A DNA stretch of 64,000 bases from Cenarchaeum sp. (lineage in GTDB: Archaea; Thermoproteota; Nitrososphaeria; Nitrososphaerales; Nitrosopumilaceae): NCBI GenBank assembly GCA_963693095.2, contig OY843768.1, forward strand, positions 1,632,001-1,696,000, given 5' to 3'. The translations under genes and the position numbers were made by a program. The notes beneath the pieces are model-generated. The model searched no databases. It saw only the letters and a list, made by a program, of their open reading frames with translations, and had not been told where the DNA came from. This document shows, in pieces, positions 6,451 through 38,540 of the stretch (position 1 is its first letter; every line of letters starts with the position of its first letter).

Positions 6451-6780
6451 CTAGTATAGCTTAAAGCGCACCGGTCCGAGGGGCGCATATCTCTTGGTGA
6501 TCTCTCCTGTTTGTGAATTGGGGATTGGCGCCTTGGGATGAAAAGTGATCTCAAGTGTGCCTTCTTCAAGCGGCGTTCCGTTCTCCACCCGTATCTCGTC
6601 CTCTAAAACGAAAAAGCTCTTGGAGCTCCGCAGAGTTTCTGGCCGCGGGATTGCAAAAACAGATGTGTGTGAGAGGGGGAACAGGCGCTTTCTATACTGT
6701 TTGGTGACCTTTATGCGATATGACACGTCACGATGGTCTAGCCATGGGGATTGTGTAACCGATGTTGACACAAAAGCCAT
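6451..6780 (-). pseudogene. C-terminal fragment of a family B (ART-like) gene
   Basis: Begins at FVSTS, contains LEDEIR and the conserved C-terminus, lacks the N-terminal ~165 aa. Confidence 0.75.
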
Positions 6781-7012
6781 CTTGCATCCGCTCCTTTATG
6801 CGCAAGGTGGGGGAATCATGCGCCGTGTGCTGACGCCACGGCCGGCGGGGGCGGCTACAGGGAGCGAGCAGCCAAAGGCCCGGCCCAATGTCACCTTTTC
6901 CCACGGCATAACGGGTGCCCTGCACCTCTTGGAAAAAATATGGCCGGCACCGGGACACGGGGATAACGATGCCCAATAATTGCAGTGGGCAAAAACAATT
7001 GGGTGGGAAAGC

Positions 7013-7270
7013 CTATGCGAGCAGCTCTAGCCGTTCCACGTCGAATCCCTTGACAAAGCGCCACTCTTGCTCTATTGGAGTGGCCGGCTCGAAGACCATC
7101 TCGTCACGCTCGATCATGCCGATCCTCTCGGCCTCGGCAATTACCTCCCATACCTCCTCCTCGGAGAGCGGCCCCTTGAGCCGCGTCATGATCTCTGCAG
7201 CAGACGCAGAGCCATAGAACTGTAGGCCGCTGGCGATGACCCCTAGGCCGTCACGTTTTGCTGGGTTCAT
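7013..7270 (-). CDS. Family A small protein, copy 4
   Basis: Family signature. Confidence 0.8.
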   Translation of the reverse strand: MNPAKRDGLGVIASGLQFYGSASAAEIMTRLKGPLSEEEVWEVIAEAERIGMIERDEMVFEPATPIEQEWRFVKGFDVERLELLA

Positions 7271-7492
7271 TGGAAAGCAGTGTGCTGTTGCGCCTATTAA
7301 GCCTAATGCGCGCACGCAGGCGTGGACACGAACCCACACGGGCAGGGCGCAATGCAGGAGCGTGTAGGTGCAGAGGTCTCGGTAAACCCCACAGGGACCT
7401 CCGCGTTGTCTCCATGCGGCCATGGGTGCCCTAGATGCACGCCGTACAGATGTAGGCATGCCGTTAGGATTAGCTGCGTGCAGAGAGGTTGA

Positions 7493-8314
7493 TCAACAAC
7501 ATTCAATGTGCACGGGTCCGAGGGAGGAGTACGTTTCAATCAGATCTTTTGTGTGAGACTTGGAGGGCGGTGTCTTATAGTAAAAAGTGATCTCAAGTGT
7601 GTCCTTTTCAATCGGTGTCCCGTTTTCTAAACGAATTTCATCCTCCAGATAGCGCACGCTCTTGGGTCCCTGGATAACTTCTGGATGCGCGATTGCGAAA
7701 ACTGATGTATATGTGAGCGGAGACGCACGTTTTCTGTACTGGTCGGTGACTTTGATGCGATATGACACGGGACGGTATATGAACCAGGAGGACTGTGTGA
7801 TCGAGGTTGCCACAAAATTATGATAGATTGAGTGAAACTTGCCCAGAGCCAACATGCTCTTGAGTTCTCCATAACCCCCTATAAAGCGCGAGAGTACAGT
7901 TGCGTTTGGCCACGAGTACCAGAGCGAGGCGTTGTATGCCGCCGCAAGCTCCTCACAGTCACGGACTACTAGTCCCAGTTTATGTGTTTGATATAGGTCA
8001 TTTAGGCGACTGTTGCGCTCGTCAACTTCAGACGATGGAACCAATGGGCGGTGAACGTCGCTGATTTTTAAAACTGCTGATGGCCTGTTCTCACAGCGTG
8101 ATGTGGCATGGATAAATTTCTCCTGGGCGGCATCGCACAGCCGGAGAAACTCTGGAATGCGCCTATCTGGGTCAAGGCCATGCCGGAGAACCAGATCCAG
8201 GATCACGTCATGGCGCAGTGTGGCGCACGTGCAGGGAGACGCCCTGATCGCAGCGTCTATGTGGGGAGACAATGAGGCGATCAGGTTGCGATCACGCAAA
8301 TTCGGCGGGTTCAA
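7493..8314 (-). CDS. Family B protein, putative R-S-E clade ADP-ribosyltransferase fold, full copy 1
   Basis: VLSRF / FVATS / LEDEIR motifs; TTTTATAT box upstream of an inferred TTG start. Confidence 0.65.
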   Translation of the reverse strand: MNPPNLRDRNLIASLSPHIDAAIRASPCTCATLRHDVILDLVLRHGLDPDRRIPEFLRLCDAAQEKFIHATSRCENRPSAVLKISDVHRPLVPSSEVDERNSRLNDLYQTHKLGLVVRDCEELAAAYNASLWYSWPNATVLSRFIGGYGELKSMLALGKFHSIYHNFVATSITQSSWFIYRPVSYRIKVTDQYRKRASPLTYTSVFAIAHPEVIQGPKSVRYLEDEIRLENGTPIEKDTLEITFYYKTPPSKSHTKDLIETYSSLGPVHIECC

Positions 8315-8692: not shown

Positions 8693-8947
8693 GAATGTGG
8701 GCACGGCGTCCCGCGCGTCTCGCATTTTGGCATGTGACAGAACGCAGGCGGCGATCAGGGGCGTGCTCTAGTGCCCCCCTCTGGCTGTCTCTTGCCTCTC
8801 CCCCACTCCGTCGAGTTGGGCCCGGCGCGCCATGGCCGGATTGCCGTGATGCTATCGTTCCACCCCGATCTGTGTCCTGCGGGGTATTCTGCCCCCGCTC
8901 CCACTTTATGCGCAAGGTGGCAAAAACAAGAGGGGGGTAGAGTCCAC

Positions 8948-9205
8948 CTATGCGGGTAGCTCTAGCTTTTTTACGTCGAATCCCTCGACGAGGCGCCATT
9001 CCTGTCCCTCCGGCGTGGCCGCCTTGAAGACCATCTCGGCGCGCTCGATCATGCCGATCCTCTCGGCCTCGGCGATCACGTCCCACGCCTCCTTCTCGGT
9101 GAGCGCTCCCACGAGGTGCGTTATGAGCTCGGTCGCTGGCAGGGGTCCAAAGATCTTTAGCCCCTTCGCAACGACGAACAGCCCTTCTTGCCTTGCTGGG
9201 TTCAT
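8948..9205 (-). CDS. Family A small protein, copy 5
   Basis: Family signature. Confidence 0.8.
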   Translation of the reverse strand: MNPARQEGLFVVAKGLKIFGPLPATELITHLVGALTEKEAWDVIAEAERIGMIERAEMVFKAATPEGQEWRLVEGFDVKKLELPA

Positions 9206-9315
9206 CAGAGCCGTTACGGCTGTGGCTTTATTAAAGTCTAATGCGTTAATGTGGGCTGACCCATGTTCAAAGACAAGTGCACAATGAGCAAAAACAAGAG
9301 GGGGGTAGAGTCCAC

Positions 9316-9573
9316 CTATGCGGGTAGCTCTATCTGCCCCACGTCGAATCCCTCGACGAGGCGCCATTCCTGTCCCTTCGGCGTGGCCGCCCTGAAGATC
9401 ATGTCGGCGTGCTCGATCATGCCGATCCTCTCGGCCTCGGCAACGACATCCCATGCCTCCTCTTCGGTGAGCTTTCCCACAATGTGCGTCACGAGCTCAG
9501 TCGCCGGCAGGGGTCCATAGATACTCAGTCCCCTCGCGATTACTCGCAGTGCATCTTGCCTTGCTGGATCCAT
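9316..9573 (-). CDS. Family A small protein, copy 6
   Basis: Family signature. Confidence 0.8.
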   Translation of the reverse strand: MDPARQDALRVIARGLSIYGPLPATELVTHIVGKLTEEEAWDVVAEAERIGMIEHADMIFRAATPKGQEWRLVEGFDVGQIELPA

Positions 9574-9678
9574 CAGGGTTCTCACGGTTGTGGCATTATT
9601 AAAATCTAGTGCGTGAATGAGGGCATGACCCAGGTTCAAAGACAAGTGCACAATGAGCAAAAACAAAGGGGGGTGTAC

Positions 9679-9945
9679 CTATGCAGGTACCTTTAGCTGC
9701 TCCACGTCGAATCCCTCGACGAGGCGCCACTCCTGTCCCTCCGGCGTAGTCGCCCTGAAGACCATGTCGACGCGCTCGATCATGCCGATCCTCTCGGCCT
9801 CGGCAATGACATCCAATACCTCCTTTTTGGTGAGCTTTCCCACAGTGTGCGATATGAGCTCAGCCGCCGGCAGGGGTCCATAGATACTCAGTCCCCTCGC
9901 GATGACTCGCAGCGCATCTTGCCTTTCTGGATCCATCAGAGCCAT
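9679..9945 (-). CDS. Family A small protein, copy 7
   Basis: Family signature. Confidence 0.8.
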   Translation of the reverse strand: MALMDPERQDALRVIARGLSIYGPLPAAELISHTVGKLTKKEVLDVIAEAERIGMIERVDMVFRATTPEGQEWRLVEGFDVEQLKVPA

Positions 9946-10055
9946 CACGGTTGTGGGATTATTAAAATCTAGTGCGTGAATGTGGGCGCCCCAAAACCGG
10001 AGATAAAAGCACGTAGAATGTGGCACGCAAAAACAGGAGAAGGTAGGAGTTTTGC

Positions 10056-10322
10056 CTATGCGGGTATCTCTAGCTTCTTTACGTCGAATCCCTCAACGAG
10101 GCGCCATTCCTGCCCTTCCGGCGTGGCCGACTCAAAGACCATGTCGGCGCGCTCGATCATGCCGATCCTCTCGGCCTCGGCAATGACATCCCACGCCTCC
10201 TTCTCTGTGAGCTTTCCCACGAGGTACGTTATGAGATCAGCCGCTGGCAGGGACCCATAGATCTCCAGTCCCCTTGCAACGACTAGCAGCCCATTGTGCT
10301 TTGCTGGGTTCATCAGAGCCAC
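10056..10322 (-). CDS. Family A small protein, copy 8
   Basis: Family signature. Confidence 0.8.
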   Translation of the reverse strand: MALMNPAKHNGLLVVARGLEIYGSLPAADLITYLVGKLTEKEAWDVIAEAERIGMIERADMVFESATPEGQEWRLVEGFDVKKLEIPA

Positions 10323-10535
10323 TACGGCATGAGATTATTAAAATGTAGTGCGCTAATGTGGGCACGGGTGCCCTGCGCACCCCACATTTTGGCACATGGC
10401 AGGAGCATAGGCACGCCTACCACGGCGGGGAGCTCGTTGATGGGTCATCTTGCGGCGGTGTGGACAAGAGTCCTCAACAGGGATATCTCGCCATGCTGCC
10501 CTGCAGTTCCTCGATGCGCACAACTCCAGCATAGC

Positions 10536-10885
10536 CTACTCAAAGCGCACCGGCCCTAGGGGCGCATACTTTTCAATGATCTCCCCTGGCCGTGACTTGG
10601 AGATTGACACCCTGGAATGAAAAGTGATCTCAAGTGTGCCTTCTTCAATCGGCGTTCCGTTCTCCATCCGTACCTCATCTTCCAAAAGATGAAAGCTCTT
10701 GGATCCTCGTAGAGTTTCTGGATGCAGTATTGCAAAAGCAGATGTGTATGAGAGTGGGAACAAGCGCTTTCTATACTGTTCAGTGACCTTTATGTGATAT
10801 GACACGTCACGGCGGTTTAGCCATGAGGATTGTGTAACCGATGTTGCCACAAAATCGTGTCCGTTCGAGCGAAACTCACGCGTTT
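10536..10885 (-). pseudogene. C-terminal fragment of a family B (ART-like) gene
   Basis: Homology begins near TREFRSNGHDFVATS and includes LEDEVR. Confidence 0.75.
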
Positions 10886-11453: not shown

Positions 11454-12287
11454 CTAGTCTAGCTTAAAGCGCACCGTTCCTAGGGGCTTATACTTTTCAA
11501 TGATCTTTTTAGGCGACAAATTGGGAATTGACACCTTGGAATGAAAAGTGATCTCAAGCGTGCCCCCTTCAAGCGGAGTTCCGTTCTTCATCCGTATCTC
11601 GTCCTCCAAAATTCGAAAGCCCTTGCGCCCATGTAAAATTTCTGGATGCGGGGTTGCAAAAACAGATGTGTACGTGAGAGGAAACATGTGCCTTCTATAC
11701 TGTTCGGTGATTGTTATGCGATATGACACGTCGCGGTAGCTTAGCTCGTCGGAGTAAGTGGTCGATGCTGCCACAAAGTCGTGTCCGTTTGAGCGAAACT
11801 CGCGTGTTGCCAACATGTTGTCAAGCTCCGCAACACCCTTCACATAGCGCAAGAGCGTGGTTGCATTAGCCCATGAATACCGGAGTGAGGCGCTGTATGC
11901 GACTGCAAGCTCCTCGTAATCACGAACCTTCTTGTCGAGGCCACATCTACCGTATAGGCTGTTTAGATACTCGTTGTGCTCGTCCATCCTGGATGCAGAC
12001 ACGGAGGGCTGGTAACGTTTGTCTGCTAGTGACCTCATTTCCGGATAGCGCGTATGGCCTGATGCGGCTTGGGCAAAGTTCACATAAGCGCCTTTAGATA
12101 GATCCCGAAACTCTCGAGTGCGTCTCAGTGGGTCAAGACTATCGTCAAGACCATATTTGAGAACCAGATCCAGGATCACATCAGAGCGCAGTGTGGCGCA
12201 CGTGCAGGGAGACGCCTTGATCGCAGCGTCTATGTGTAGAGACAGTGAGGCGATCAGGCTGCGATCACGAAAATTCGGCGGGTTCAA
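11454..12287 (-). CDS. Family B putative ADP-ribosyltransferase, full copy 2
   Basis: LLRY / FVAAS / LEDEIR motifs; start inferred from TATA spacing. Confidence 0.65.
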   Translation of the reverse strand: MNPPNFRDRSLIASLSLHIDAAIKASPCTCATLRSDVILDLVLKYGLDDSLDPLRRTREFRDLSKGAYVNFAQAASGHTRYPEMRSLADKRYQPSVSASRMDEHNEYLNSLYGRCGLDKKVRDYEELAVAYSASLRYSWANATTLLRYVKGVAELDNMLATREFRSNGHDFVAASTTYSDELSYRDVSYRITITEQYRRHMFPLTYTSVFATPHPEILHGRKGFRILEDEIRMKNGTPLEGGTLEITFHSKVSIPNLSPKKIIEKYKPLGTVRFKLD

Positions 12288-12572: not shown

Positions 12573-15500
12573 CTATTCGCGTATCGAGTCTAGTATGCGC
12601 TCGGCGAGGTTGATCTCTTGGGCGATGTCATCGCTCAGGCGCTCTAGGCGCGGAATGAGGACCATGTCGTCGTATGGCGAGGTGACTGCCTCGGGCACGT
12701 CATCGACCTCGATGGCGACGCCCATCTCGGCCATGATCTCCATGGCGATCTTTTCCTGGCGATCGAGCTCGACTGCAAAGAGGTCCGAGGAGCGCTCGGC
12801 GCCGTGCGTGCGTATGCGCGCATCAGCATACATCGAGTCGTCTATCTCGTGGTATAGCGAGTAGAGGTTGCGCAGCGGCGCGTACGTCCCGTCTGGCGTG
12901 AGGCGCCAGACCGAATAGTTCTCGTCTAGCATGTACGTGACGTGGCGCTCGTCATAGTCGTATATCCCGTCGCCGTCCTCATCAACGTGGGCCGATATGA
13001 GCGGGAAGAGGACGAGCTCGCCGCCGTTGACCTCGACTCCGCGCGACGGGTTTAGCGACTCGCCGTCGACGTGAACGCCGTGGTTGAAAAAGTTCTGCCA
13101 CGAGTTTAGCCTCGTGTCCCAGATGCTCGTCGAGACGACATCAAAGTCAAGGGGCTCGCGGAACGTGTGGTATATCGTGACCTCGAGGCACTCGGCCACG
13201 CTGCCGCGCATACAGTCAGTCCTTTCTGCCGTCGCGCGCAGCGTTTCTGCGTCTATGGCGCCTGATGCGTCATCGAGTGAGACAGAGAGCGCTCCGGTGT
13301 GGGAGATGTCAACGCTGATGCCGGCTTCGGACTCGGCAAAGTGCTGCCCGCGGCCAAGTCCAAAGGCCAGGCCCGCGTGGGCTATCCTCGAGACTCCGCT
13401 GTCCTCGTATATCTTTAGCACGGCGACGTTCTCGACGCCCGTCTCTACCTCTATGAGCGGCATGGGCGTGTAATAGTACTCTACGTCATGGACCTCGCCG
13501 TTGTACGTGAACCCTCCGGAGACCCTGCGCTCTCCGGTCGAGTCGATGCCTAGCGTCGGTGACGTGCAGTCATCACAGCCCGAGCCGCCCCTGCTGAGCT
13601 GCTGCGAGCTGGCGCCAAAGGGCGTAAAGTGGTTCGTCCATATGTATAGCGTGTCGCTGCCGCGCACAAAGCACTCTGCGTCGTCCGTGCCCGTACCGCT
13701 CGCGACGTTGGGGGCGCCCATGTGCGGGCCGACCTCTGAGGTGTCGACCGTGTCGACACTCGAGTCTTCGCACTCGTCTATGGCGTGCAACACGTCATCT
13801 GTTCTCGTCATCGTGTCAGTGCCCTCGATGTAATAGACATAGAGCGAGCTCTCTGCGCCACGAATACCAATCCTTGCTGGCTCGGAGAGCACCACTTTGC
13901 GCTCGGCGCTTCCCGCGTCAACTACGCTCAGCGGTGCCCTAGTCGCCAGCGCCCTAGTCGCGCGCTCAGAGTCATCTCCGTACTGCACGTCCTCTAGGAG
14001 GCTCGTATAGTACGCTGTGGTTCCCGTCTCATGCCCGGCTTCGCGCTCGAGGAGGGCCAGCATGGGCACGTCGTTCGCATCTGTGGGATCGTCAAGACCC
14101 AAGGCCTCTGTGTCTTGCGCGAGCAGGACCTCCACGTCTGGCGCCTGCTGCGGCGCGTACAGGATGGTGTCCGTGAGCGCGCCGCCTGCGGCAGTCAGGC
14201 CCGTGCCGCCCAGGCTGACGATGGGATCGCCGTTACCGGAGCCTGAGATGGGCACGGGGGCTGTGCCGAGGAAATCAAGTGTGAGCAAGTCAAATCCGCT
14301 GACCCCCAGCCTAGCACCAGAGGTCGACGCGGGGTCTGGGCGCGCCGGCGGCTGATCCCACGAAATTGGATTGTGTGACAGGTCAGTTAGGGACGTCGCG
14401 TCGGGAGTCCCGCTTCCCTGGTCAAAACTGATCTCAAAGCGTGCACCGACGTCATGGCCGGTGGATGATACGGGACAGACTAGCTCAGAATTCTCGATGT
14501 CGCAGTGTGCTTGGGCGAAATTGATCCTTGTGTTCATCAAGAGCGTGCCGCTGGCGAGATCGATGTGTTCGGCTATCGTGGTGTTGCGGTATAGCCGAAT
14601 CGTGGACGTGTCGAGTGCGTCGGCCTCGTCATAGTACAGGGCGAGCCACGGATCAGAGTTGCCCATGCTATCGGTTCTCACGAGGACTGCTGCGTTCGTC
14701 ACGCTCGGGGGCACGTTGTCCATGCGAACCTCGTCTTCAAGGATCATCAGCATAGCCTCGTTGCCTGCCTCATCAGCCTGCATGAGGATACTTGGCTTAT
14801 AGACTGCATCAAACAGCTCCATGTCTGCCCTTTCAGGAACCGTGAACTCGTGGGTCCACTCCATCATATCGCTGCCGTCGACCTCTGTCATCACCGGCTC
14901 GGGGATGCGGAACTCTGCGGACACGCGTGCGCCGGCCTCACCGAGTGTTGAGCCAGTGCCCATTACGCTCGGCGCCATCAGGATGGGCTCGTTAAACGTC
15001 ACCATTGTTGTGATCGTGTCGCCGGCCTTTGACCTGTCCGTCGCACGCGTTGGATACATTGTTTGATCTATGGTGACGGAGCTGGCAGTTATCACCGGCG
15101 CCGTGTTGTCGACCCTAAAGCCAAGACCCGCGGTCGAATCGTCCAGGTCGGCCGGATCGTTTGAGAGCGTCGTGGATCGCCCATACTTGTCCATGACGGT
15201 GATGGTCCAGTCCACAGCATTGAATCCCTCCGCATGACCTTCAGGTATCACCGAGGTCGCAACATATGGGTCACTAGACGTGCCTGTTCCGCTCAGCGAC
15301 GTGGCCGCAGTGTCCGTAAAGAACGTAATGTCATCCTTGTCAAAGCCCACGAGGCGCTCGGGGGTCTCGTCCATGGTGAACGTCAGGGCGATCCCTCCGC
15401 CATCGCGGCCGACGCTTGACGTGTACTCGCCCGTGCTGCCAGCGAGCCTGCCCATCAGTGACTGTTCTGTGATTACAGGCGCCCTCGTGTCGACCCTGAC

Positions 15501-24992: not shown

Positions 24993-25134
24993 GCTGCGCA
25001 CTGGGGAGGGACGCCAGCGTGCCGGTGACTCTTGGCAAAAATTTCCAATCGTAACCCGCGCGTCCAAAACTGGACAAATGCCCATGCGCCCAATGTGCCG
25101 GACATGCAAAAACTAGAGAGGGCGGGATTGTTGC

Positions 25135-25401
25135 CTATGCGGCCATCTCTAGGCGCCTCATGTCAAATCCCCTGACGAGGCGCCACTCCTGCTCCTCCGG
25201 GGTGGCCGCCCCTATGATCATGTCGGCGTGCTCGATCATGCCGATCCTCTCTGCCTCGGCAATGACATCCCATGCGTCCTTTTCGGAGAGCGGGCCCATG
25301 AGCCGCGTTATGAACTCTGCCGAAGGAACGGTGCCATAGAGCTCCAGCCCCCTGGCAATGAACCGCAGATCCTCATCCCTGACCATGCTTATCATGCTCA
25401 T
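25135..25401 (-). CDS. Family A small protein, copy 10
   Basis: Family signature; the exact start among several Met codons is uncertain. Confidence 0.75.
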   Translation of the reverse strand: MSMISMVRDEDLRFIARGLELYGTVPSAEFITRLMGPLSEKDAWDVIAEAERIGMIEHADMIIGAATPEEQEWRLVRGFDMRRLEMAA

Positions 25402-25830: not shown

Positions 25831-26174
25831 GTACAGGGCAAAGGCGCACCTCCCACCAAGTGGGACATTCAGCAAAGGCCAGCGACGGGATCGTTCAGGG
25901 TTTTGGGGCGGTCAGCTTTAGGTCTGGGAGATGTCCCCTAGCTAGTCGCGCGCCCTCGCCGTGGATCCGCCCCCAATAAAGGACAAAACGAGCCCGCATT
26001 GGCCATTCCGGGCTCCATGTGCCACAGACCCCTGGGGGCGCCCATGGGGTCTATTTGGGGCCTCTGCGGAATGCCAGTTTCGGGGAATATGGGGGAGATT
26101 ATGGCGACGGCTAGGCGTGATCTGACACTCTAAATGGCGCACATTTAAAGAAGGGACTGTTGGCGAGCCGCGTG

Positions 26175-27080: not shown

Positions 27081-27421
27081 GTACAGGGCAAAGGCGCACC
27101 TCCCACAAAGTGGGACATTCAGCAAAGGCCAGCGACGGGATCGTTCAGGGTTTTGAGGCGGTCAGCTTTAGGTCTGGGAGATGCCCACTGGCGAGTCGCG
27201 CGCCCTCGCCGTGGATCCGCCCCCAATAAAGGACAAAACGAGCCCGCATTGGCCATTCCGGGCTCAATGTGCCCGCCCTTGGGGTGTGCCTATGGCGTCT
27301 ATTTGGAGCCCTGCGGAATGCCAGTTTCAGAGAATATGGGGGAGATTATGGCGCCGGCTAGGAGTGATCTGGCACTCTAAATGACGCACATTTAAAGAAG
27401 GGACTGTTGGCGAGCTGCGTG

Positions 27422-27928
27422 ATGAGCGCGACAACTGCCCGCCACAACCCCATGCTAGCCGACAACGAAAAGACGGTGGAGTTTATCAGGGGGTTTGTCG
27501 GCGAGGACGAAAAAAAGATCGCCGAGATTGAGGAGTGGGGCAAGAGGCGCCAGAGGCGCATCGACAGGCTCTGCCACTTTGTCGGCCTCCTCGAGCAGAA
27601 CGGCATACTAAGGGAGGACGGCAAAGAGTTGGTGGGGGTTATGCGCGAATTTGCCGCCACGCAGTGCTTTGCGATCGCCACAGCCCATAATCTAGACGGC
27701 ATGGAGTACCAGTTCAACGACAGCCAGTCCGGCCCCCTCTGTGCTGCCATACATCTTGACTTTGCAGCCGTCAAGGCAGTGCCAGTCGAGTCGCCCACGG
27801 GTCTCTTTGCGAATCCCGAGGACGAGAGGAGGTTCTTGGAGACAGTCAGGGGCAAGAACCCCCGTGAGCTCGGTAGAATGGCTCGATCCCTGGTAATCGA
27901 GGAGAGAGACCGCGTGACTCTAGTATAG
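27422..27928 (+). CDS. Hypothetical protein, family C copy 2
   Basis: Paralogue; its C-terminus is joined to the convergent family B fragment. Confidence 0.7.
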   Translation: MSATTARHNPMLADNEKTVEFIRGFVGEDEKKIAEIEEWGKRRQRRIDRLCHFVGLLEQNGILREDGKELVGVMREFAATQCFAIATAHNLDGMEYQFNDSQSGPLCAAIHLDFAAVKAVPVESPTGLFANPEDERRFLETVRGKNPRELGRMARSLVIEERDRVTLV

Positions 27929-28128
27929 CTTAAAGCGCACCGGTCCGAGGGGCGCATACTTCTTGATGATCTCTCCTGTTTGTAAATTGGGGATTGGCTT
28001 CTTGGAATGAAAAGTGATCTCAAGTGTGCCCTCTTCAATCGGGGTTCCGTTCCCCATCCGTATCTCGTCCTCTAAAATATGAAAGCTCTTGGAACCCCGG
28101 AGAATTTCTGGATGAGGGGTTGCAAAAA
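27919..28128 (-). pseudogene. Short C-terminal fragment of a family B gene
   Basis: KSFHILEDEIRMGNGTPIEEGTLEITFH. Confidence 0.75.
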
Positions 28129-28151
28129 CAGAGGAGGGTTGGGAGTTTTGC

Positions 28152-28418
28152 CTATGCGGGCATCTCTAGCTTTTTTACGTCGAATCCCTTGACGAGGCGC
28201 CACTCCTGTCCCTCCGGCGAAGTCGCCTTGAAGACCATGTCGGCGCGCTCGATCATGCCGATCCTCTCGGCCTCGGCAACGACATCCCACGCCTCCTCTT
28301 CGGTGAGATCTCCCACGAGGTGCGTTATGAACTCAGCCGCCGGCATGGGCCCATAGATACTCAGTCCCCTCGCGATGACTCGCAGTGCGTCTTGCTTTGC
28401 TGGATCCATCAGGGTCAT
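28152..28418 (-). CDS. Family A small protein, copy 11
   Basis: Family signature. Confidence 0.8.
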   Translation of the reverse strand: MTLMDPAKQDALRVIARGLSIYGPMPAAEFITHLVGDLTEEEAWDVVAEAERIGMIERADMVFKATSPEGQEWRLVKGFDVKKLEMPA

Positions 28419-28615: not shown

Positions 28616-29431
28616 TTATGCAAAGCGCACCGGTCCGAGGGGCGCATATCTCTTGATGATCTCTTCTGTTTGTAAATTGGAAATTGGCCTCTTGGAATGA
28701 AAAGTGATCTCAAGTGTGCCCTCTTCGATCGGAGTTCCGTTCTCCATCCGTATCTCGTCCTCTAAAATGCGAAAGGTCTTGGGACCTCGCAGAATTTCCG
28801 GATTGGGGGTTGCAAAAACAGATGTGTATGAGAGAGGGAACGCGTGCTTTCTATACTGTTCGGTGACCTTTATGCTGTATGATATGTCGCGATCCTTTAG
28901 CCAGGGGGATTTTGTGACCGATGTTGCCACAAAATCGTGTCCGGTCGAGCGAAACTCGCGTGTCGCCAACATACTATCAAGCTCTGCAATCTTTCCCACA
29001 TAACGCGAGAGCACTGTCGTGTTGGCCCATGCGTGTCGGAGTGAGATGCCATATGCGACTGCAAGCTCCTCGCAGTCACGGACCATCTTGTCGAGGCCGA
29101 ATCTCTGGTATAGGTTGTTTAGGTTTTCGTTGTGCTTGCCAGTCTTAGATGCAGGCACCATGATCTGGTAATTGTCATCTGCTAGTGACGTCATTTCCGG
29201 GTAGTCCGCATTATCTGATACGTCTTGGCCGAATTTCTTATGAGCGTCATCGCATAGCTGCAGAAACTCTGGAATGCGCCTATCTGGGTCAAGGCCGTGC
29301 TTGAGAACCAGATCCAGGATCACGTCGCGGCGCAGTGTGGCGCACGTGCAGGGAGACGCCTTGATCGCAGCGTCGATGTGGGGATCCAGGGAGGCGATCA
29401 GGCTGCGATCACACGAATTCGGCGAGCTCAT
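28616..29431 (-). CDS. Family B putative ADP-ribosyltransferase, full copy 3
   Basis: ATG start after TTTTATAT; VLSRY / FVATS / LEDEIR motifs. Confidence 0.65.
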   Translation of the reverse strand: MSSPNSCDRSLIASLDPHIDAAIKASPCTCATLRRDVILDLVLKHGLDPDRRIPEFLQLCDDAHKKFGQDVSDNADYPEMTSLADDNYQIMVPASKTGKHNENLNNLYQRFGLDKMVRDCEELAVAYGISLRHAWANTTVLSRYVGKIAELDSMLATREFRSTGHDFVATSVTKSPWLKDRDISYSIKVTEQYRKHAFPLSYTSVFATPNPEILRGPKTFRILEDEIRMENGTPIEEGTLEITFHSKRPISNLQTEEIIKRYAPLGPVRFA

Positions 29432-29479
29432 TGGCAGTGCCAAAAATTGCCGATATAAAATACCTGTGGACTGATCGCA

Positions 29480-29592
29480 GTATGGGGTCAGCACCCCTCT
29501 GCTCATTTGACCAAATGGGCGTGATCCTGCCTGCCTACTTGTCACTGCGGCACCTGTCCGGGCATGAACGGGCAGGGGTGCTGACCTCATAC
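29480..29592. mobile_element. IS66-type MITE, copy 3
   Basis: Terminal inverted repeats and conserved interior. Confidence 0.85.
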
Positions 29593-30124
29593 ATCCCGCG
29601 GTGCCCGCATGTGCGCGATATTGACGACTGCGCCATGCTCCCCAAAGACCTCGAGGAACCGCGCATAGCGCGCCCCATAGTACAGGCATCGCGCACGCCA
29701 TCGGCGCGCCGTTACAGCCCTACCGCCCGTTGACCAGGAACTTTGGGCGCGTGTCACGCAAAAAGCAGATCGCCGTCGCCCGACCAAACACAAGGCGCCT
29801 CCAGTGCCCTGTGTTGGTCGCAACACGGGGGCCAGGACCTCCGAGCCATGCTCGTCATGCGCGTCTGCGCACTTGCGCAGCCAGTCAAATATCCCTGTGC
29901 CATGTTTCCTGTCGGCGCCATAAGGGGGGGTTGACATGGATCCTCGCATAGTCCCACGTGTGCTGCAGGCCGTCATCTCTAGGCGGCACGAGCTTTCTGT
30001 CGGCCTCCACTATCGAGTGCGGGCCCGAGCACGGATCAAGGCAGATCGTGTCGCCAAACGCACTGCAGACGGCATCGGCGTAGACCTTGGGCGTTCCCCA
30101 GTCCTTCCTTTTCGTGATCGCCAC
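29587..30124 (-). pseudogene. DNA N6-adenine methyltransferase, frameshifted at the NPPY homopolymer
   Basis: DWGTPK, LDPCS, DGL..W and NPP(Y) motifs; G7 run versus in-frame G6, plus further indels. Confidence 0.82.
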
Positions 30125-31089: not shown

Positions 31090-31347
31090 CTATGCGGGTA
31101 TCTCTAGCTTCTTTATGTCGAATCCCTCGACGAGGCGCCATTCCTGACCCTCCCGTGTGGTCGTCCCAAAGATCCCCTCGTCGCGCTCGATCATGCCGAT
31201 CCTCTCGGCCTCGGCAACGACATCCCATGCCTCCTCTTCTGTGAGCGTTCCCACAATGTGCGTCACGAGCTCAGTCGCCGGCAGGGGCCCATAGAAACTC
31301 AGTCCCCTCGCGATGACTAGCAGCGCATCTTGCCTTTTCGGATCCAT
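31090..31347 (-). CDS. Family A small protein, copy 12
   Basis: Family signature. Confidence 0.8.
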   Translation of the reverse strand: MDPKRQDALLVIARGLSFYGPLPATELVTHIVGTLTEEEAWDVVAEAERIGMIERDEGIFGTTTREGQEWRLVEGFDIKKLEIPA

Positions 31348-31555
31348 CAGGGTCAGCAAGGTTGTGGAGTTATTAAAACCTAGTGCGTTAATGTGGGCAC
31401 GATGCCCTGCATTTTGACACATGGCAAGGCGCAGGAGCACACAGGCCACGGCGAGGGATTCATTGGTGATCCACACTGCGGCCGTGCGGGCAGGAACCCC
31501 AACAGGAATATCGCGCCATGCAGCCCTGCAGCTCCCCGATGTGCGTGACTCTAGC

Positions 31556-31780: not shown

Positions 31781-32047
31781 CTATGCGGGCAGCTCTAGCT
31801 TTTTCATGTCAAACCCCTCGACGAGGCGCCATTCCCGCGCCTCCCGCGTGGGCGACTCAAAGACCATGGCGGCGCGCTCGATCATGCCAATCCTCTCGGC
31901 CTCGGCAAGCACATCCCACGCCTCCTCTTCTGTGAGCTTTCCCACGATGTGCGTTATGAGATCAGCCGCCGGCAGCGGACCATAGATCTTCAGCCCCCTC
32001 GCAATGACTAGCAGCCCATTGTGCTTTGCTGGGTTCATCAGAGCCAT
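31781..32047 (-). CDS. Family A small protein, copy 13
   Basis: Family signature. Confidence 0.8.
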   Translation of the reverse strand: MALMNPAKHNGLLVIARGLKIYGPLPAADLITHIVGKLTEEEAWDVLAEAERIGMIERAAMVFESPTREAREWRLVEGFDMKKLELPA

Positions 32048-32259: not shown

Positions 32260-33075
32260 TTACTCAAAGCGCACCGGTCCTAGGGGCGCATACTTTTCAA
32301 TGATCTCCTCTGGCCGTGACTTGGAGATTGACGCCTTTGAATGAAAAGTGATCTCAAGTGTATCTTCTTCAATCGGCGTTCCGTTCTCCATCCGTATCTC
32401 GTCTTCCAAAACACGAAAGCTCTTGGAGCTCCGCAGAGTTTCTGGATCCGGGATTGCAAAAACGGATGTGTGTGAGAGGGGGAACAGGCGCTTTCTATAC
32501 TGTTCGGTGACCTTTATGCGATATGACACGTCACGATTGTTTAGCCATGGGGATTGTGTAACCGATGTTGACACAAAATCGTGTTTGTTCGAGCGAAACT
32601 CGCGTGTTGTCAACATGCTGTCAAGCTCCGCAACGCCCTCCACATAACGCGAGAGCACGGTCGTGTTGTCCCATGCGTGCCGGAGTGAGACGCTGTATGC
32701 GACTGCAAGCTCTTCACAGTCACGAACCATCTTGTCGAGGCCATATTTCTGGTATAGGCTGTTTAGGTTTTCGTTGTATTTGTTAACCCTAGATGCGGGC
32801 ATCCTGGCGAGGTAAAGTTCATTTGTTAGTGATCTCATTTCTGGATAGCCCGCATGACTCGATACGGCTTGGTCAAATTGTATCGGAGCGTCCCCACATA
32901 GCCCCATAAACTCTGGGATGCGCGTATGTGAGTCAAGGCCATGCCTGAGAACAAGATCCAGGATCACGTCGTGACGCAGTGTGGCGCACGTGCAGGGAGA
33001 CGCCCTGATCGCAGCGTCTATGTGGGGGGACAGCGAGGCGATCAGGTTGCGATCACGCAAATTCGGCGGGTTCAA
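32260..33075 (-). CDS. Family B putative ADP-ribosyltransferase, full copy 4
   Basis: VLSRY / FVSTS / LEDEIR, with a canonical STS. Confidence 0.68.
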   Translation of the reverse strand: MNPPNLRDRNLIASLSPHIDAAIRASPCTCATLRHDVILDLVLRHGLDSHTRIPEFMGLCGDAPIQFDQAVSSHAGYPEMRSLTNELYLARMPASRVNKYNENLNSLYQKYGLDKMVRDCEELAVAYSVSLRHAWDNTTVLSRYVEGVAELDSMLTTREFRSNKHDFVSTSVTQSPWLNNRDVSYRIKVTEQYRKRLFPLSHTSVFAIPDPETLRSSKSFRVLEDEIRMENGTPIEEDTLEITFHSKASISKSRPEEIIEKYAPLGPVRFE

Positions 33076-33123
33076 TGGCAGTGCCAAAAATTGCCGATAT
33101 AAAATATCTGTGGGCTGATCGCA

Positions 33124-33236
33124 GTATGGGGTCAGCACCCCTCTGCTCATTTGACCAAATGGGCGTGATCCTGCCTGTCTACTTGTCACTGCGGCACCTG
33201 TCCGGGCATGAACGGGCAGGGGTGCTGACCTCATAC
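33124..33236. mobile_element. IS66-type MITE, copy 4
   Basis: Nearly identical to copy 3 and in the same position upstream of a family B gene. Confidence 0.85.
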
Positions 33237-33417
33237 CCCGCATTGGCCATTCCGGGCTCCATATGCCACAGGCCCTTGGGGGCGCCCATGGGGTCTATTT
33301 GGAGCCCCGCGGAATGCCAGTTTCGGGGAATATAGGGGAGATTATGGCGACGGCTAGGAGTGCTCTGACACTCTAAATGGCGCACATTTAAAGAAGGGAC
33401 TGTTGGCGAGCTGCGTG

Positions 33418-33915
33418 ATGTCTGCGACAACTGTCCGCCACAACCCCATGCTAGCCGACAACGAAAAGACGATGGAGTTTGCAAAGGGGTTTGCCGGCGA
33501 GGACAAGAAAAAGATCGCCGAGATAGAGGAGTGGGGCAAGAGGCGCCAGAGGCGCATCGACAGGCTCTGCCACTTTGTCGGCCTCCTCGAGCAGAACGGC
33601 ATACTAAGGGAGGACGGCAAAGAGTTGTTGGGAGTTGTGCGCGAATTTGCCATCGAGCAGTGCTTTGCGATCGCCACGGCCCATAATCTAGACGACATGG
33701 AGTACCAGTTCAACGACAGCCAGTCCGGCCCCCTCTGTGCCGCCCTGGATCTTGACCTTGCAGCCGTCAAGGCCGAAAAGCCGTTCACAAGCCCCTTTGC
33801 GAATCCCGAGGACGAAAAGAGGTTCCTAGAGACAGTCAGGGGCAAGAGCACGCGTGAGCTTGGCCGAATGGCTCGACCTCTAGTGATCGAAGAGAGAGAC
33901 CGCATATACGGCTAG
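33418..33915 (+). CDS. Hypothetical protein, family C copy 3
   Basis: Paralogue of 26175..26672. Confidence 0.7.
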   Translation: MSATTVRHNPMLADNEKTMEFAKGFAGEDKKKIAEIEEWGKRRQRRIDRLCHFVGLLEQNGILREDGKELLGVVREFAIEQCFAIATAHNLDDMEYQFNDSQSGPLCAALDLDLAAVKAEKPFTSPFANPEDEKRFLETVRGKSTRELGRMARPLVIEERDRIYG

Positions 33916-34503: not shown

Positions 34504-34515
34504 CCCACACACAGG

Positions 34516-34982: not shown

Positions 34983-35240
34983 CTAGGCGGAGATCTCTAG
35001 CTGTTCCTCGTTGAATCCCTCGACAAGACGCCACTCTTGCTCTCTTGGAGTGATCGCCTCGACGATCATCTCGGCGCGCTCGATCACGCCGATCTTTTCG
35101 GCCTCGGCGATTAGATCCCATATCTCCTTCTCGGAGAGCGGCCCTATGAGCCGCGTTATGATCTCTGCTGAAGGTACCGAGCCATAGAGGCGGAGACCCC
35201 TGACAATGTCTAGCATGCCTTTTTGCTGCGCTGCGTTCAT
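34983..35240 (-). CDS. Family A small protein, copy 14
   Basis: AEAEKIGVIER..QEWRLV. Confidence 0.8.
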   Translation of the reverse strand: MNAAQQKGMLDIVRGLRLYGSVPSAEIITRLIGPLSEKEIWDLIAEAEKIGVIERAEMIVEAITPREQEWRLVEGFNEEQLEISA

Positions 35241-35470
35241 CAGAGCCAGTATTGTGACGACACTATTAAAATGTAATGTGTGGGGGGCTTTTGTGCCTTG
35301 TACGAAAAGCAGTAGACTGTGCAAGGGGCGCACCCAATACACTCCAAGCCCATGGGGGGACACGGCGGGACAGACCAGACTCGACCCACGGGCAGGCCGG
35401 ACACGACCCTGGCCGCCACGAGAGGCAGGGGGCGCCCAGGAGAGTCGCGCAGGGCCGGCAGGAACCACAC

Positions 35471-37112
35471 CTAGGAGGCGCGGGATCGTAGCGGGGCAGG
35501 CCTCATGTGCGCGATATTGACGACTGCGCCATGCTCCCCAAAGACCTTGAGGAATCGCGCATAGCGCCCCCCGTAATACAGCATCGCGCACGCCATCGGC
35601 GCGCCGTTCCCGCCCTCCCGCCCGTTGACCAGAAACTTTAGGCGCGTGTCGTGCAAAAAGCAGATCGCAGTCGCCCGGCCAAACACAAAGCGTTTCCAGT
35701 GTCCCGTGTTGGTCGCAACGGGTACGAGGGCCAGCACCTCCGAGCCATACTCGTCATGCGCGTCTGCGCACTTGCGCAGCCAGTCAGATATCCTTGTGCC
35801 ATTTTTCCTGTCGGCGCCATAAGGGGGGTTGACATATACTGACGAGCAAAAGTTCGTGCCATGATCAAACTTTCCCGACCCGCATGCTATATGGATCGCC
35901 CCTCCCCACGCCCTGCATGGAAGGCCAAGAGCTGGAAGCGTTCCGCAGGGCACTCCGCGACGAGAGGGACGGCGACGTCAGGTACAGGTTTGCCGCGGTC
36001 AACATGCACGAGAACCTGGGGATGACGCGCGAGGAGGTCGCACTTGCGCTCGTGCAGTGCCCCAGGTGGGTCGGCAAGTGGGTCGCGCGCTACCGGAGTG
36101 GCGGTGTCGAGGCCCTGCGGGACCGCCCCCGCCCCGGCAGGCCGCCGCTGGTCGCGCGGCAGAAGCTTGGCCGCCTGATTGGCCGAATGCCCGGGCGCGT
36201 CACGCCCGCAGAGGTCATGCTGGAGATCGAGCGGGCCACCGGCGTGAGGTTCCACATGTCGCACGTCAGGAAAATAATGCGCAGGGCCGGCCTCTCCGCC
36301 AAGCGGACGCGCCTGGTGCACGTGAACAGGGCCGACGGGCCGACTGTCGCCGGCTGGCGGCGCCGGGTGCGGCGCGAGATAAGGCGCCTCAGGCGCGCGG
36401 GATTCACCATCGTAGTGCAGGACGAGACCATCGCCGTGCACGGCGCAGCCGACGGATCAAAGTACTGGTCGCGCGTGGGCGTCCCCGTCGTCGCCCCGTA
36501 CACCGGGGGACACAGGAGGGTCGTGGTGTACGGCGCGATCTCCACTGACGGGAAGCAGATCTTCCGGGTGCACGACAGGTTCGATGCGGAGACGTTTGTC
36601 GCGTTCCTGCGCGACATGCACAGGAAGTTCGGCAGGGTCGCCGTGATCGTCGACAGGGCGCCGCAGCACAGGGCCGCGGCGGTGAAGGACTATCTTCGCG
36701 CCCACAGGGCGGTGAGGCTGATCGAGCTGCCCACCGGCTCGCCGTACCTCAACGCGATCGAGGAGGTGTGGCGGCAGGCAAAGCGGGCGCTGCTGGTCTC
36801 CGAGCACTACCCCACCATGGTGGATATGCGGACGGCGGTGTCACGGCACTTCAGGCACACGAGGTACCGGCTCGACGTGATGGCATACCTGGGCCGGACG
36901 TCGCTGGAATGCGGCACGGACTTTTGATCGGCAGTATAGATCCTCGCATAGTCCCACGTGTGCTGCAGGCCGTCATCCCTTGGCGGCATGAGCTTTTTGT
37001 CAGCCTCCACTATCGAGTGCGGGCCGGAGCACGGGTCAAGGCAGATCGTGTCGCCAAACGCCCTGCAGACGGCATCGGCATAGACTTTGGGCGTTCCCCA
37101 GTCCTTTTTCAT
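35471..37112 (-). pseudogene. DNA N6-adenine methyltransferase interrupted by IS630
   Basis: Removing the IS and one TA restores MKKDWGTP...ARIYVNPPYG...ALVPVATNTGHW in frame. Confidence 0.88.
35837..36936 (+). mobile_element. IS630-family insertion sequence, complete (transposase 35884..36927)
   Basis: Protein identical to 943..1986; inverted repeats and TA duplication present. Confidence 0.95.
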
Positions 37113-37305
37113 CGTGACTGCCCTCCGGCCTGCAGTCATTCCTGCATCCTCCAGCCTCTAGAGCGCGCCGCGTGTTGAAATGTCATCAAAGCCGCGCATT
37201 CCCGCACACCTCCCGCACTCAATCCAGCTCGCCGGATTGTACCCGTTAATAAAAAGATTAGAGGGTGATCAGCTGACCGTGTGGCTCTTGCCGATGAGGG
37301 TCAGC

Positions 37306-37563
37306 CTATGCTGCGATCTCTAGCTGTTTCACGTCGAATCCCTTGACGAGACGCCACTCTTGCTCCCTTGGAGTGATCGCCTCGACTACCATATCGGCGT
37401 GCTCAATCACGCCGATCTTTTCGGCCTCAGCGATTAGATCCCATATCTCCTTCTCGGAGAGCGGCCCTATGAGCCGCGTTATGATCTCTGCTGAAGGCAC
37501 CGAGCCATAGAGGCGGAGGCCCCTGACAATGACTAGCATGCCTCTTTGCTGCGCTGCATTCAT
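37306..37563 (-). CDS. Family A small protein, copy 15
   Basis: Family signature. Confidence 0.8.
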   Translation of the reverse strand: MNAAQQRGMLVIVRGLRLYGSVPSAEIITRLIGPLSEKEIWDLIAEAEKIGVIEHADMVVEAITPREQEWRLVKGFDVKQLEIAA

Positions 37564-37682
37564 CAGAGCCAGTATAGTGACGACACTATTAAAATGTAAC
37601 GTGCGTAGGCGAGCAGGAGCGCCCGTGCGCGCCGGGCATATTTAACATGTGATGTGGGCGCAGCGCTCCCAAAGGTACACCG

Positions 37683-38540
37683 CTACTTTGCCAGTACGTC
37701 GGCACGTACAGGTTTTGATGAACCCGTACATTTAATGTATACAGGCCCAAGAGGGGCATAGGCCTCAATGAGCTCTCTAACCCTCGATTTGGCCATAGGC
37801 CTCTCGCAATGAAAGGTAATCTCAAGCGTGCCATCTTCAATCGGTGTTCCGTTCTTTAGCCTGATTTCATCTTCCAAAAAGCGAAAGCTTTTTGGTCCCG
37901 GAAGAACCTCTGGATCCGAGATTGCAAAAACTGATGTGTATGTTAGCGGAGATGCATATTTTCTATAGTGATCGGTGACTTTTATGCTACATGACACATT
38001 ACGATCGTTGAACCAGGGGGACTGGGTGATTGATGTTGCCACAAACTCGTGTACGTTTGAACTAAATTGGCGTGTTGCCAACATACTTTCAAGCTCTCCG
38101 TTACCATCCATATAGCGCGAGAGTGTGGTTGTGTTATCCCACATGTACCAGAGCGAGGCATTGTATGCAACTGCAATCTCCTCACAGTCACGTACAACTC
38201 TGCCCAGGTTGTATCTCTGGTATAGACTGTTTAGACTATCGTTGCGTTCACCAATCTGGGATGTGGGTACCAAAGTGTGGTAAGTGTCGTTTATTCGTGA
38301 CCTCGTTTCTGGACTGTTCATATGTTTTGATAGAGCCTGGGAAAAATTTGCCTGGGCACCATAGCATAGCTGCTGAAATTCGGGAATGCGCCCCTGTGAA
38401 TCAAGGCCATGCTTGAGAACCAGTTCCAGAATGGCGCTAGAGCGCAGTGTGGCACACGTGCAGGGGGATGCCCTGATCGCAGCATCTATGTAAGGGGTCA
38501 AGGAGGCGATCAAGCTGCGATCACGCAAGTTTGAATTCAA
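37683..38540 (-). CDS. Family B putative ADP-ribosyltransferase, full copy 5
   Basis: TLSRY / FVATS / LEDEIR motifs. Confidence 0.65.
   Translation of the reverse strand: MNSNLRDRSLIASLTPYIDAAIRASPCTCATLRSSAILELVLKHGLDSQGRIPEFQQLCYGAQANFSQALSKHMNSPETRSRINDTYHTLVPTSQIGERNDSLNSLYQRYNLGRVVRDCEEIAVAYNASLWYMWDNTTTLSRYMDGNGELESMLATRQFSSNVHEFVATSITQSPWFNDRNVSCSIKVTDHYRKYASPLTYTSVFAISDPEVLPGPKSFRFLEDEIRLKNGTPIEDGTLEITFHCERPMAKSRVRELIEAYAPLGPVYIKCTGSSKPVRADVLAK

Follow-up and report, generated by a model that had tools for sequence, protein, structure and literature searches.

The question raised by this locus is what is encoded by two gene families that recur side by side in a 64,000-nt stretch of the genome of Cenarchaeum sp. 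(contig OY843768.1 of assembly GCA_963693095.2, positions 1,632,001-1,696,000, or C1:1632001-1696000 in the coordinates used here; hereafter, the window). Family B consists of putative ADP-ribosyltransferase (ART) genes and family A of small partner genes located downstream of them; together they form an island of approximately 34 kb. A third expanded family is referred to as family C. The genome measures 2.0 Mb, with a completeness of 99.55%, and the G+C content of the window is 55-65%. On balance, we favour the view that B is an ART toxin neutralised by A, a winged-helix immunity protein or antitoxin, in a system confined to the genus Cenarchaeum.

An initial annotation, drawn from the sequence alone, had described five full B genes sharing the motifs L(S/L)R(Y/F), FV(S/A)(T/A)S and LEDEIR at successive distances of about 24 and 55 aa, an N-terminal SPCTCATLR block, a variable middle segment and no signal peptide. 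This description proved accurate. All five genes are present on the minus strand and are paralogous, being 55-63% identical to the first copy (alignment A1, which comprises the five window copies). The three motifs are found in 5/5 copies, the first of them as LSRF, LLRY or LSRY, with 24 aa separating R143 from F167 and 52 aa separating S171 from L223; the SPCTCATLR block is likewise present in 5/5 copies. The middle segment (residues 59-100) is the least conserved, and the translations show no visible N-terminal hydrophobic stretch. The full proteins are 271-285 aa long. Searching the genome with tblastn retrieved six full copies, of which only one lies outside the window (C1:741797-742621, within a B-A pair at C1:741797-743094), plus four C-terminal fragments in the window; the sixth copy is solitary and surrounded by housekeeping genes. 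The B features of the window are the following.

7493..8314, minus strand: full B gene, 273 aa, predicted R-S-E type ART (P0015), TTG start at 8314
11454..12287, minus strand: full B gene, 277 aa, directly downstream of an open reading frame (ORF) of 3489 aa
28616..29431, minus strand: full B gene, 271 aa, beginning with the ATG at 29431; the extension of the ORF as far as 29701 is spurious
32260..33075, minus strand: full B gene, 271 aa, TTG start at 33075; the copy that was modelled
37683..38540, minus strand: full B gene, 285 aa (P0014)
6451..6783, minus strand: C-terminal B fragment, residues ~164-271, without the Arg strand
10536..10883, minus strand: C-terminal B fragment, residues ~157-271
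27929..28135, minus strand: C-terminal B fragment, residues ~203-271, abutting a family C gene, with the same junction in the sister genome
31562..31756, minus strand: C-terminal B fragment, residues ~206-270

Two of the full genes lie within over-extended ORFs (28616-29701 and 32260-33243), whose true starts are at 29431 and 33075. We judge these ORFs overlong because a conserved ATTTTATAT box is located about 27 nt 5' of the TTG or ATG starts at 8314, 12287, 29431, 33075 and 38540, because the B relatives found in databases are 271-285 aa long, and because the surplus N-terminal residues cross a dispersed repeat of about 113 nt. Copies of this repeat lie at ~33099-33211 and 29455-29567 (minus strand), just upstream of the two B genes, where they inflate the ORFs. 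The repeat occurs at more than 20 genome sites by blastn, in copies 74-87% identical, has no Rfam match at the gathering score, and may be an element resembling miniature inverted-repeat transposable elements. As for the fragment at 6451-6783, we considered and rejected its derivation from the full B gene found at 1348327 in the sister genome (G012); its best match is the window gene at 32260 (81%).

Both families are under purifying selection. The median pairwise ratio of nonsynonymous to synonymous substitution rates (dN/dS) is 0.39 for B and 0.39 for A at a dS of ~0.7, in 55/55 comparisons among 11 of the 14 B-A pairs; L002b was omitted for its near identity to one of the window copies, and L003 and L004 for being too divergent. 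Along B, the ratio reaches 0.71 in segment 59-100, which points to relaxed or diversifying evolution, compared with 0.24-0.38 elsewhere and 0.24-0.34 in the catalytic half. Since the copies are homologous genes under purifying selection, the recurring pattern of B is not due to chance.

The fold of B was then addressed by structure prediction. The AlphaFold2 model of the copy at 32260, built from a 16-row alignment, reached a mean predicted local distance difference test score (pLDDT) of 82.7 and a predicted template modelling score of 0.82. In this model B would consist of a helical N-domain of ~137 aa (helices spanning residues 6-137) and a putatively catalytic beta-rich C-domain of ~135 aa (residues 138-271), with strands at 140-145, 167-171, 183-188, 197-199, 226-230, 240-244 and 268-270. 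The model was compared by VIA-align with 48,161 PDB representative chains, 11 of which gave Z of at least 5; 10/11 align to B residues 135-271. Eight of these ten belong to the ART superfamily by title (three Tpt1/KptA, TreTu and four DarT), the ninth is an RHS2 toxin domain, which we take to be an ART, and the tenth is 2jqn, a protein of unknown function. The top match of the C-domain is Tpt1 (Z 9.0, root-mean-square deviation 3.0, 107 residues aligned); DarT structures follow at Z 5.4-5.7, and TreTu, TreX and the 6drh pair at Z 4.4-5.9. The lower rows on residues 135-271 are nearly all toxin-type ARTs, namely XopAI, CopC, Scabin, SpvB, ExoS, a Tre1-type toxin, HopU1, CARDS toxin, LT, pertussis toxin and diphtheria toxin. 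We give weight to this comparison because the top hit stands 2.5 Z units above the next row and the matches are uniform in family. Foldseek searches of the PDB returned weak rows (best E 0.04), which include Tpt1, DarT, C3, cholera toxin A1 and TreTu. Finally, of the 30 ESM Atlas clusters nearest to residues 135-271, 13 belong to the PF03496 ADPrib_exo_Tox set (score 0.93). The N-domain (residues 1-137) scored 0.89 at most (DUF7207), under the level taken as a lead.

The conserved residues occupy the positions expected of an ART in the predicted structure. R143 lies in strand 140-145, which is followed by a helix; FVSTS forms the next strand (167-171); and E224-D-E226 opens strand 226-230 after a low-confidence loop (214-218) placed like the ADP-ribosylating turn-turn loop. 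R143, E224 and E226 are invariant in 18/18 rows of alignment A4, which includes three remote relatives aligned in the C-domain alone, and in 13/13 rows of alignment A6, which reaches down to 18% identity. Thus the ART fold proposed in the initial annotation is supported by the model, by VIA-align and by Foldseek, with Arg, S-x-S and E-x-E on the expected strands. Its concern that most copies have ATS or AAS instead of STS is eased in part: relatives often carry STS, and the third position (residue 171) is S or T in 18/18 rows of A4, but 4/5 window copies keep Ala in the first position. We infer that B is best read as a lineage-restricted, sequence-divergent member of the ART superfamily with a cholera-toxin/C3-like signature.

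The same annotation had called the family unrecognised and archaeal, and both terms stand. Family B has no match in Pfam, PHROGs, NCBIfam, PADLOC or the PDB sequences. Comparing B, A, family C, the remote relatives P0032-P0034 and the B-like proteins of genome G071 (see below) with Pfam, PHROGs, NCBIfam and PADLOC yielded just scattered Pfam and PHROG rows far below the cut-offs; no Pfam match was found for A. Among 5.8 billion proteins searched by word index, 18 B relatives were detected, 0 of them with a Pfam domain; a hidden Markov model (HMM) search yielded 14 from 1.84 billion cluster representatives. Three of these 14 (P0032, P0033 and P0034) are remote and long, and align in the C-domain only. 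When P0033 was used as a bridging query it matched only itself, and a tblastn comparison of P0034 with 50,697 phage records gave no match. In a viral structure library, the best rows (E 2.5e-3) are uncharacterised phage proteins, while the annotated ART, PARP-domain and RNA 2'-phosphotransferase rows (one each, E 0.2-2) are too weak to use.

Related loci in species-representative genomes come from metagenome-assembled genomes labelled Cenarchaeum sp. Among the 151 genomes of the taxonomic family, B occurs in four: the window genome, two of the four others of its genus and, as a weak match (E 2e-6), one genome of another genus. Family A is found in 4/151 genomes, all within the genus Cenarchaeum. 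The weak match is in G071 (3.9 Mb), where two genes of 275-280 aa carry VYRW, FKALT and ESEVR motifs. This B-like subfamily keeps the Arg and the E-x-E, and each gene faces a convergent gene of a different small family (L006 2785-3612, minus strand, with 2229-2771, plus strand; L007 2459-3301, minus strand, with 1528-2415, plus strand). These neighbours have a conserved C-terminal stretch of ~90 aa in common and may represent a second type of partner. Genes with tetratricopeptide repeats (TPR) lie near the G071 loci. A profile that includes the G071 proteins (A6) retrieved 12 further unannotated proteins.

Two of the database relatives have unusual architectures. P0034 (848 aa) carries, besides its B-like domain, a second C-terminal stretch with FFRG, VAVSAD and ELEAR, which may be a second ART domain, and a duplicated WVTIRGN-VCI motif. 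In P0021 (404 aa, on a contig of 2271 bases), which is not among the aligned rows, B reads without a stop through the spacer into A and has E-D-K (FEDKVR), with Lys at the place of the second catalytic Glu; this may represent a toxin that has lost its activity and is now joined to its partner.

Family A proteins are 85-88 aa long. The genome holds 19 copies, 15 of which lie in the window, far above one per B, and 10/19 are orphans. The window copies are listed here.

7013..7270, minus strand: A gene, cognate of the B gene at 7493, with a 99% identical orphan copy in the sister genome
10986..11252, minus strand: A gene, cognate of the B gene at 11454
28152..28418, minus strand: A gene, cognate of the B gene at 28616
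31781..32047, minus strand: A gene, cognate of the B gene at 32260; the copy that was modelled
37306..37572, minus strand: A gene, cognate of the B gene at 37683
5982..6248, minus strand: A gene downstream of the B fragment at 6451
10056..10322, minus strand: A gene downstream of the B fragment at 10536, last unit of a four-copy tandem array
31090..31356, minus strand: A gene downstream of the B fragment at 31562
8948..9211, minus strand: orphan A gene, tandem array unit
9316..9576, minus strand: orphan A gene, tandem array unit
9679..9945, minus strand: orphan A gene from the tandem array; in the sister genome, a cognate A is 98% identical to it
5013..5279, plus strand: orphan A gene, the sole copy on this strand
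5614..5880, minus strand: orphan A gene
25135..25401, minus strand: orphan A gene
34983..35249, minus strand: orphan A gene

A TATA-like box precedes 15/15 window copies of A; it reads (T/C)TTTAAT(A/G)(A/G/C) in 14 and CTTAATAGG at the copy starting at 7270. An in-frame CTGATG start context is found in 14 copies (13 exact; the copy at 25401 has ATGATA), and copy 7270 starts at the equivalent ATG, minus the three preceding codons. These boxes and start contexts suggest that B and A are transcribed separately, probably without leaders.

The model of A (pLDDT 86) is a winged helix with the order H-H-H-strand-strand. Its top VIA-align match is the winged-helix (WH) domain of Rpa2 (Z 9.2), and cullin WHB, MarR/PadR regulators and Z-alpha domains are matched as well. 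The protein is acidic, with an isoelectric point of 4.5-5.4 in 13/14 copies and of 6.1 in the most divergent one (L003). The third helix, which would be the DNA reader, is itself acidic (EEEAWDVLAEAER, with E49 and E51 invariant); we take this to point to the binding of protein rather than of DNA. Family A has no conserved His and a single invariant Arg, R74. The top Foldseek row was the Z-alpha domain of PKZ (E 2.9e-3), and an identity of A as a Z-alpha domain was rejected on account of the acidic third helix.

How tightly the two families are linked was assessed in the three genomes with full B genes, namely the window genome, G012 and a third one. An A gene had been noted 120-230 nt downstream of each B gene, and it is present in 5/5 cases, at 222, 201, 197, 212 and 110 nt from the B stop codon; for the sixth B of the window genome the distance is ~210 nt. 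The partner is conserved more widely, A being the next family gene after 16/16 full B copies. The gap is ~110-225 nt in 15/16, and the remaining pair is interrupted by an inserted transposase gene. This linkage is kept at 45% B identity (L003 and L004). Furthermore, the distances among B proteins correlate with those among A proteins (14 pairs, Mantel r 0.86, a value reached in 0/5000 permutations).

The suggested amplification by tandem duplication is also seen, together with segmental duplication. Four A genes are repeated in tandem every ~365 nt (3.9 copies, 8920-10363). In the window genome and G012 combined, 12 of 43 A copies follow a full B gene, 3 follow a B fragment and 28 have no B within 400 nt upstream, one of these 28 having been displaced from its B by the transposase insertion. 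Truncated B relics sit beside intact A genes. The A repertoires of the two genomes are better shared than their B repertoires: only two B pairs are at least 89% identical, and the best G012 match to the B gene at 7493 is 62% identical, while a copy 99% identical to its cognate A stands in G012 at 122 nt from another A and without a B. The retention of A where B is lost or truncated is as expected for an antidote, and not for a cofactor or a dedicated regulator.

A predicted B-A complex gave a median score of 0.57, with none of 3 controls above 0.00; at least 62% of contacts recur between runs, and the partner pLDDT is at least 75. The score mark used is reached by 58/80 solved complexes and by 2/110 mismatched pairs, and scores of 0.60 or less belong to 7 of those 80 solved complexes plus both of the mismatches that pass. 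The prediction thus lends weak support to the pairing.

Beyond the paralogy, linkage, predicted fold, motif conservation, orphan pattern and purifying selection described so far, we infer catalysis and toxicity for B and its neutralisation by A. Family B would use nicotinamide adenine dinucleotide (NAD+) to ADP-ribosylate a cellular macromolecule, either protein or nucleic acid, and, if unopposed, would harm a cell lacking protection. Family A, presumably expressed from its own TATA box, would bind and block B as an immunity protein or antitoxin. The modules would duplicate and decay by unequal recombination, B often being lost or truncated and A being kept, which would leave arrays of orphan A genes.

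Several results weigh against this proposal. At the sequence level, B has no Pfam family at E<=1, the PF03496 and PF18760 HMMs have no match at E<=10 over the whole genome, and profile searches of the PDB sequences (alignments A2 and A4) returned chance rows alone (E 0.33-0.77). Below the top hit the structural matches reach only Z 4-6.5, a range that can reflect a common arrangement, and the overlap in the ESM Atlas is low (143-144/256 features), a lead at most. The first Ser of S-T-S, present in many relatives, is Ala in 4/5 window copies. The apparently separate promoters and the spacing of 110-222 nt are unlike a classic co-transcribed toxin-antitoxin operon. The Mantel correlation alone is no proof of binding, because duplication of whole units gives the same result. 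As for the complex, a score in this band would be more often wrong than right without a strong prior, and it could echo the architecture of Tpt1, in which a winged-helix lobe lies beside the ART lobe. Finally, no secretion signal or delivery machinery was found; therefore, a role between cells has no mechanism to rest on.

Other explanations must be weighed against the toxin-antidote proposal. Family A could act by binding DNA, as an ordinary winged-helix transcription factor controlling B or other genes, without inhibiting the B protein. Its model does match MarR, PadR and ArsR-type regulators at Z 7.5-8.7, and A adjoins B in every case; yet the protein is acidic overall, including the would-be DNA-reading helix EEEAWDVLAEAER with its invariant E49 and E51, and some of its best structural matches, such as Rpa2 WH and cullin WHB, are winged helices that bind proteins. 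In addition, 28 orphans, some of them in four- to five-copy tandem arrays, are not what one expects of a regulator once its target gene is lost, and we regard this explanation as unlikely. It seems similarly improbable that B is a non-toxic NAD+-using enzyme, either a regulatory protein ART or a Tpt1/DarT-like modifier of nucleic acids with A as its substrate lobe (a 'split Tpt1'). Tpt1 pairs an NAD+ lobe with a winged-helix lobe, the former is the best match of the B C-domain (Z 9.0), the genome has no PF01885 Tpt1 match (E<=1), and the complex prediction weakly suggests that A sits on B. However, the catalytic tetrad of Tpt1 is Arg-His-Arg-Arg, and A has no conserved His and R74 as its sole invariant Arg, while the Arg and E-x-E typical of toxin-type ARTs are invariant in B. 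Nor does a housekeeping enzyme fit a distribution in 3/5 genomes of the genus plus one weak match among 146 other genomes of the family, 6-8 divergent copies accompanied by truncated relics, and orphan A genes outnumbering B.

The effector alternative in the initial annotation found no evidence in its favour. In its fuller form, B would be exported against the sponge host or co-resident bacteria, with A as chaperone or self-protection. The relatives are labelled Cenarchaeum, and the described species of this genus is a sponge symbiont (PMC6790972); moreover, many of the ART-fold matches are host-targeting effectors, and large TPR and surface-protein genes lie nearby. On the other hand, neither a signal peptide nor another known export signal is visible in the translations, the genes are not linked to a secretion apparatus, and the sixth B copy is solitary among housekeeping genes. 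The many orphan A genes that are kept suggest that the target is present in the archaeon itself, and we consider export against other organisms very unlikely. Most improbable in our view is that the modules are decaying remnants of selfish or viral elements devoid of current function. The island does hold IS630-type transposases, broken Dam-like methyltransferase genes, four truncated B genes and dispersed repeats, but the full B and A genes have intact frames and conserved TATA boxes, evolve at a dN/dS of 0.39 at dS ~0.7, and keep the residues of the catalytic motifs across genomes.

If B is indeed an ART toxin opposed by A, it could be deployed in two ways. The module may act within the cell, in toxin-antitoxin fashion or in defence against viruses; this is consistent with B being a stand-alone cytoplasmic protein, with the toxin-first order seen also in DarTG, with the multiple copies, and with an island context of broken Dam-like methylase genes and insertion sequence (IS) elements. 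The separate promoters and the orphan A arrays speak against such a role. Alternatively, though we hold this to be less likely than not, the system might serve strain-against-strain conflict in the sponge, B reaching neighbouring Cenarchaeum cells by a route independent of a signal peptide and the orphan A genes forming a stock of immunities against the toxins of other strains. The small number of B orthologue pairs of at least 89% identity (just 2), the better sharing of A than of B, the A gene that is 99% identical across genomes although its B is absent from the other, and the toxin relics beside intact A genes would all agree with this; the lack of a signal peptide and of a delivery domain, and a toxin domain that is conserved rather than variable, do not.

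The surroundings of the modules contain other repeated elements. Family C (~170 aa) has 25 genome copies, 19 of them clustered near the start of contig 1 (C1:13900-45278); three copies in the window are interleaved with the B-A modules (26160-26672, 27407-27928 and 33403-33915, plus strand), and the family has no Pfam, PHROG, NCBIfam or PADLOC match. Directly upstream of the B gene at 11454, the 3489-aa ORF (12573-23042, minus strand) has a signal-peptide-like N-terminus, Thr/Ser-rich repeats and no Pfam match, and probably encodes a giant surface protein. Its role as a delivery stalk resembling those of contact-dependent inhibition or Rhs systems was rejected as a general rule, since the other B copies have no such neighbour and no Pfam match supports it. 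The region between this ORF and the next modules is scrambled and includes a perfect 12-nt tandem repeat, ACAGCATCGCGC, in 8.8 copies (23366-23470).

Two copies of an IS630-type transposase (DDE_3) with identical translations are located at 943-1986 and 35884-36927 (plus strand). The second splits a phage-type Dam methyltransferase gene (PF05869) into 35471-35953 and 36807-37139 (minus strand), and Dam-like fragments also adjoin B-A modules at 23280-23778 and 29605-29931. Five DUF3800 paralogues are found in the 64 kb (102-923 and 2453-3250, plus strand; 42053-42937, 54534-55352 and 55770-56489, minus strand), one of them with a weak PADLOC match to PDC-M04A (E 4.5e-5). One gene set occurs twice, with a gene for a ~216-aa protein preceding one whose product has an LDQLED motif (46790-47446 and 47434-48014, plus strand; 62729-63379 and 61923-62741, minus strand). 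A family of ~108 aa likewise has two window copies (41570-41896, plus strand; 24569-25105, minus strand).

These families belong to an uncultivated and ecologically important lineage of sponge-associated ammonia oxidisers, and B was missed by every sequence library searched. If B is active, it would represent a new compact ART family with a new family of winged-helix inhibitors, and would offer a handle on conflict systems, be they virus defence or strain competition, in Nitrososphaerota; it would also indicate that expanded 'hypothetical' families of symbionts can be resolved by structure prediction. Were the strain-conflict reading true, ammonia-oxidising archaea (Nitrososphaerota) would gain their first described polymorphic toxin/immunity system, whose two components, an ART and an immunity protein, come from families unrecognised by any database. 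To our knowledge, research on ART toxins and their antidotes has concentrated on bacteria and phages and has hardly touched archaea. Full-text literature searches found no paper joining Cenarchaeum, or sponge Thaumarchaeota symbionts, with ADP-ribosyltransferase, and none joining ART toxin, immunity protein and winged-helix. The excerpts of PMC6790972 describe sponge archaea as enriched in toxin-antitoxin systems and mobile elements and, as far as they go, do not mention ADP-ribosylation.

Comparison with known systems places B close to the R-S-E clade of ARTs (C3/VIP2/iota PF03496, ExoS, SpvB, cholera/LT). In common with these, B has a predicted split beta-sheet core preceded by a helical segment, and its motifs come in the same order: the Arg belongs to strand 1 and the S-x-S to strand 2, and the E-x-E follows a flexible loop and opens strand 5. 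It departs from them in having no Pfam ART similarity, an Ala often replacing the first Ser, an archaeal host, and neither signal peptide nor translocation domain. Tpt1/KptA, whose NAD+-binding lobe is the best single structural match, differs in that B would have a helical bundle as N-domain in place of a winged-helix lobe, and in that the R-H-R-R tetrad has no counterpart. We do not regard B as a Tpt1, because the genome has no PF01885 match and no winged-helix lobe is fused to B.

Among toxin-antitoxin and defence systems based on ARTs, which include ParT-ParS and CmdTAC, DarTG shares with the B-A modules the order of toxin gene first and antidote second, and the modules resemble DarT-DarG, ParT-ParS and CmdTAC in being multi-copy and in lying in a variable island. 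DarG, however, is a hydrolase of the macrodomain type and takes the modification off again; A, an 88-aa winged helix, lacks an enzymatic fold, and it is because the partner is not a macrodomain that B-A is not DarTG. B and A also appear to be separate transcription units, unlike DarTG, and the R / S-x-S / E-x-E signature of B differs from the active-site signature of DarT. Type II toxin-antitoxin systems are co-transcribed operons with a DNA-binding, autoregulating antitoxin; judging from the nucleotide and protein sequences, B and A would each have a conserved TATA-like box of their own, the genes are 110-222 nt apart, and the helix of A that would read DNA is acidic.

The interbacterial pairs Tre1-Tri1, TreTu-TriTu and TreX-TriX and the C-terminal ARTs of Rhs proteins resemble the B-A system in combining a small ART domain with a protective gene immediately 3', and in the B-A system, as in these pairs, protective genes pile up as orphans and toxin genes as truncated relics. 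The interbacterial toxins form the C-terminal domains of Rhs proteins or of proteins delivered by type VI secretion, unlike B, a stand-alone protein of 271 aa that lacks a delivery domain and appears to have a promoter of its own. We know of no winged helices among the immunity proteins of Tre/Rhs ART toxins. Polymorphic toxin systems more generally share with B-A the immunity gene immediately downstream, the orphan immunity genes and the toxin cassettes or relics; their toxins differ in being the variable C-terminal tip of a secreted multidomain protein that carries a trafficking domain, B being conserved in the C-domain and variable at 59-100. Excerpts of Zhang et al. 2012 (PMC3482391) describe such systems as rare in archaea and list among their components a winged-helix immunity family, Imm-NMB0513. 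The Imm-NMB0513 type is bacterial and paired with other toxin folds, and no sequence relation to A was found, no search aimed at one having been made; the likeness, which is one of fold, is that A too is a small winged-helix protein encoded beside a putative toxin, in arrays.

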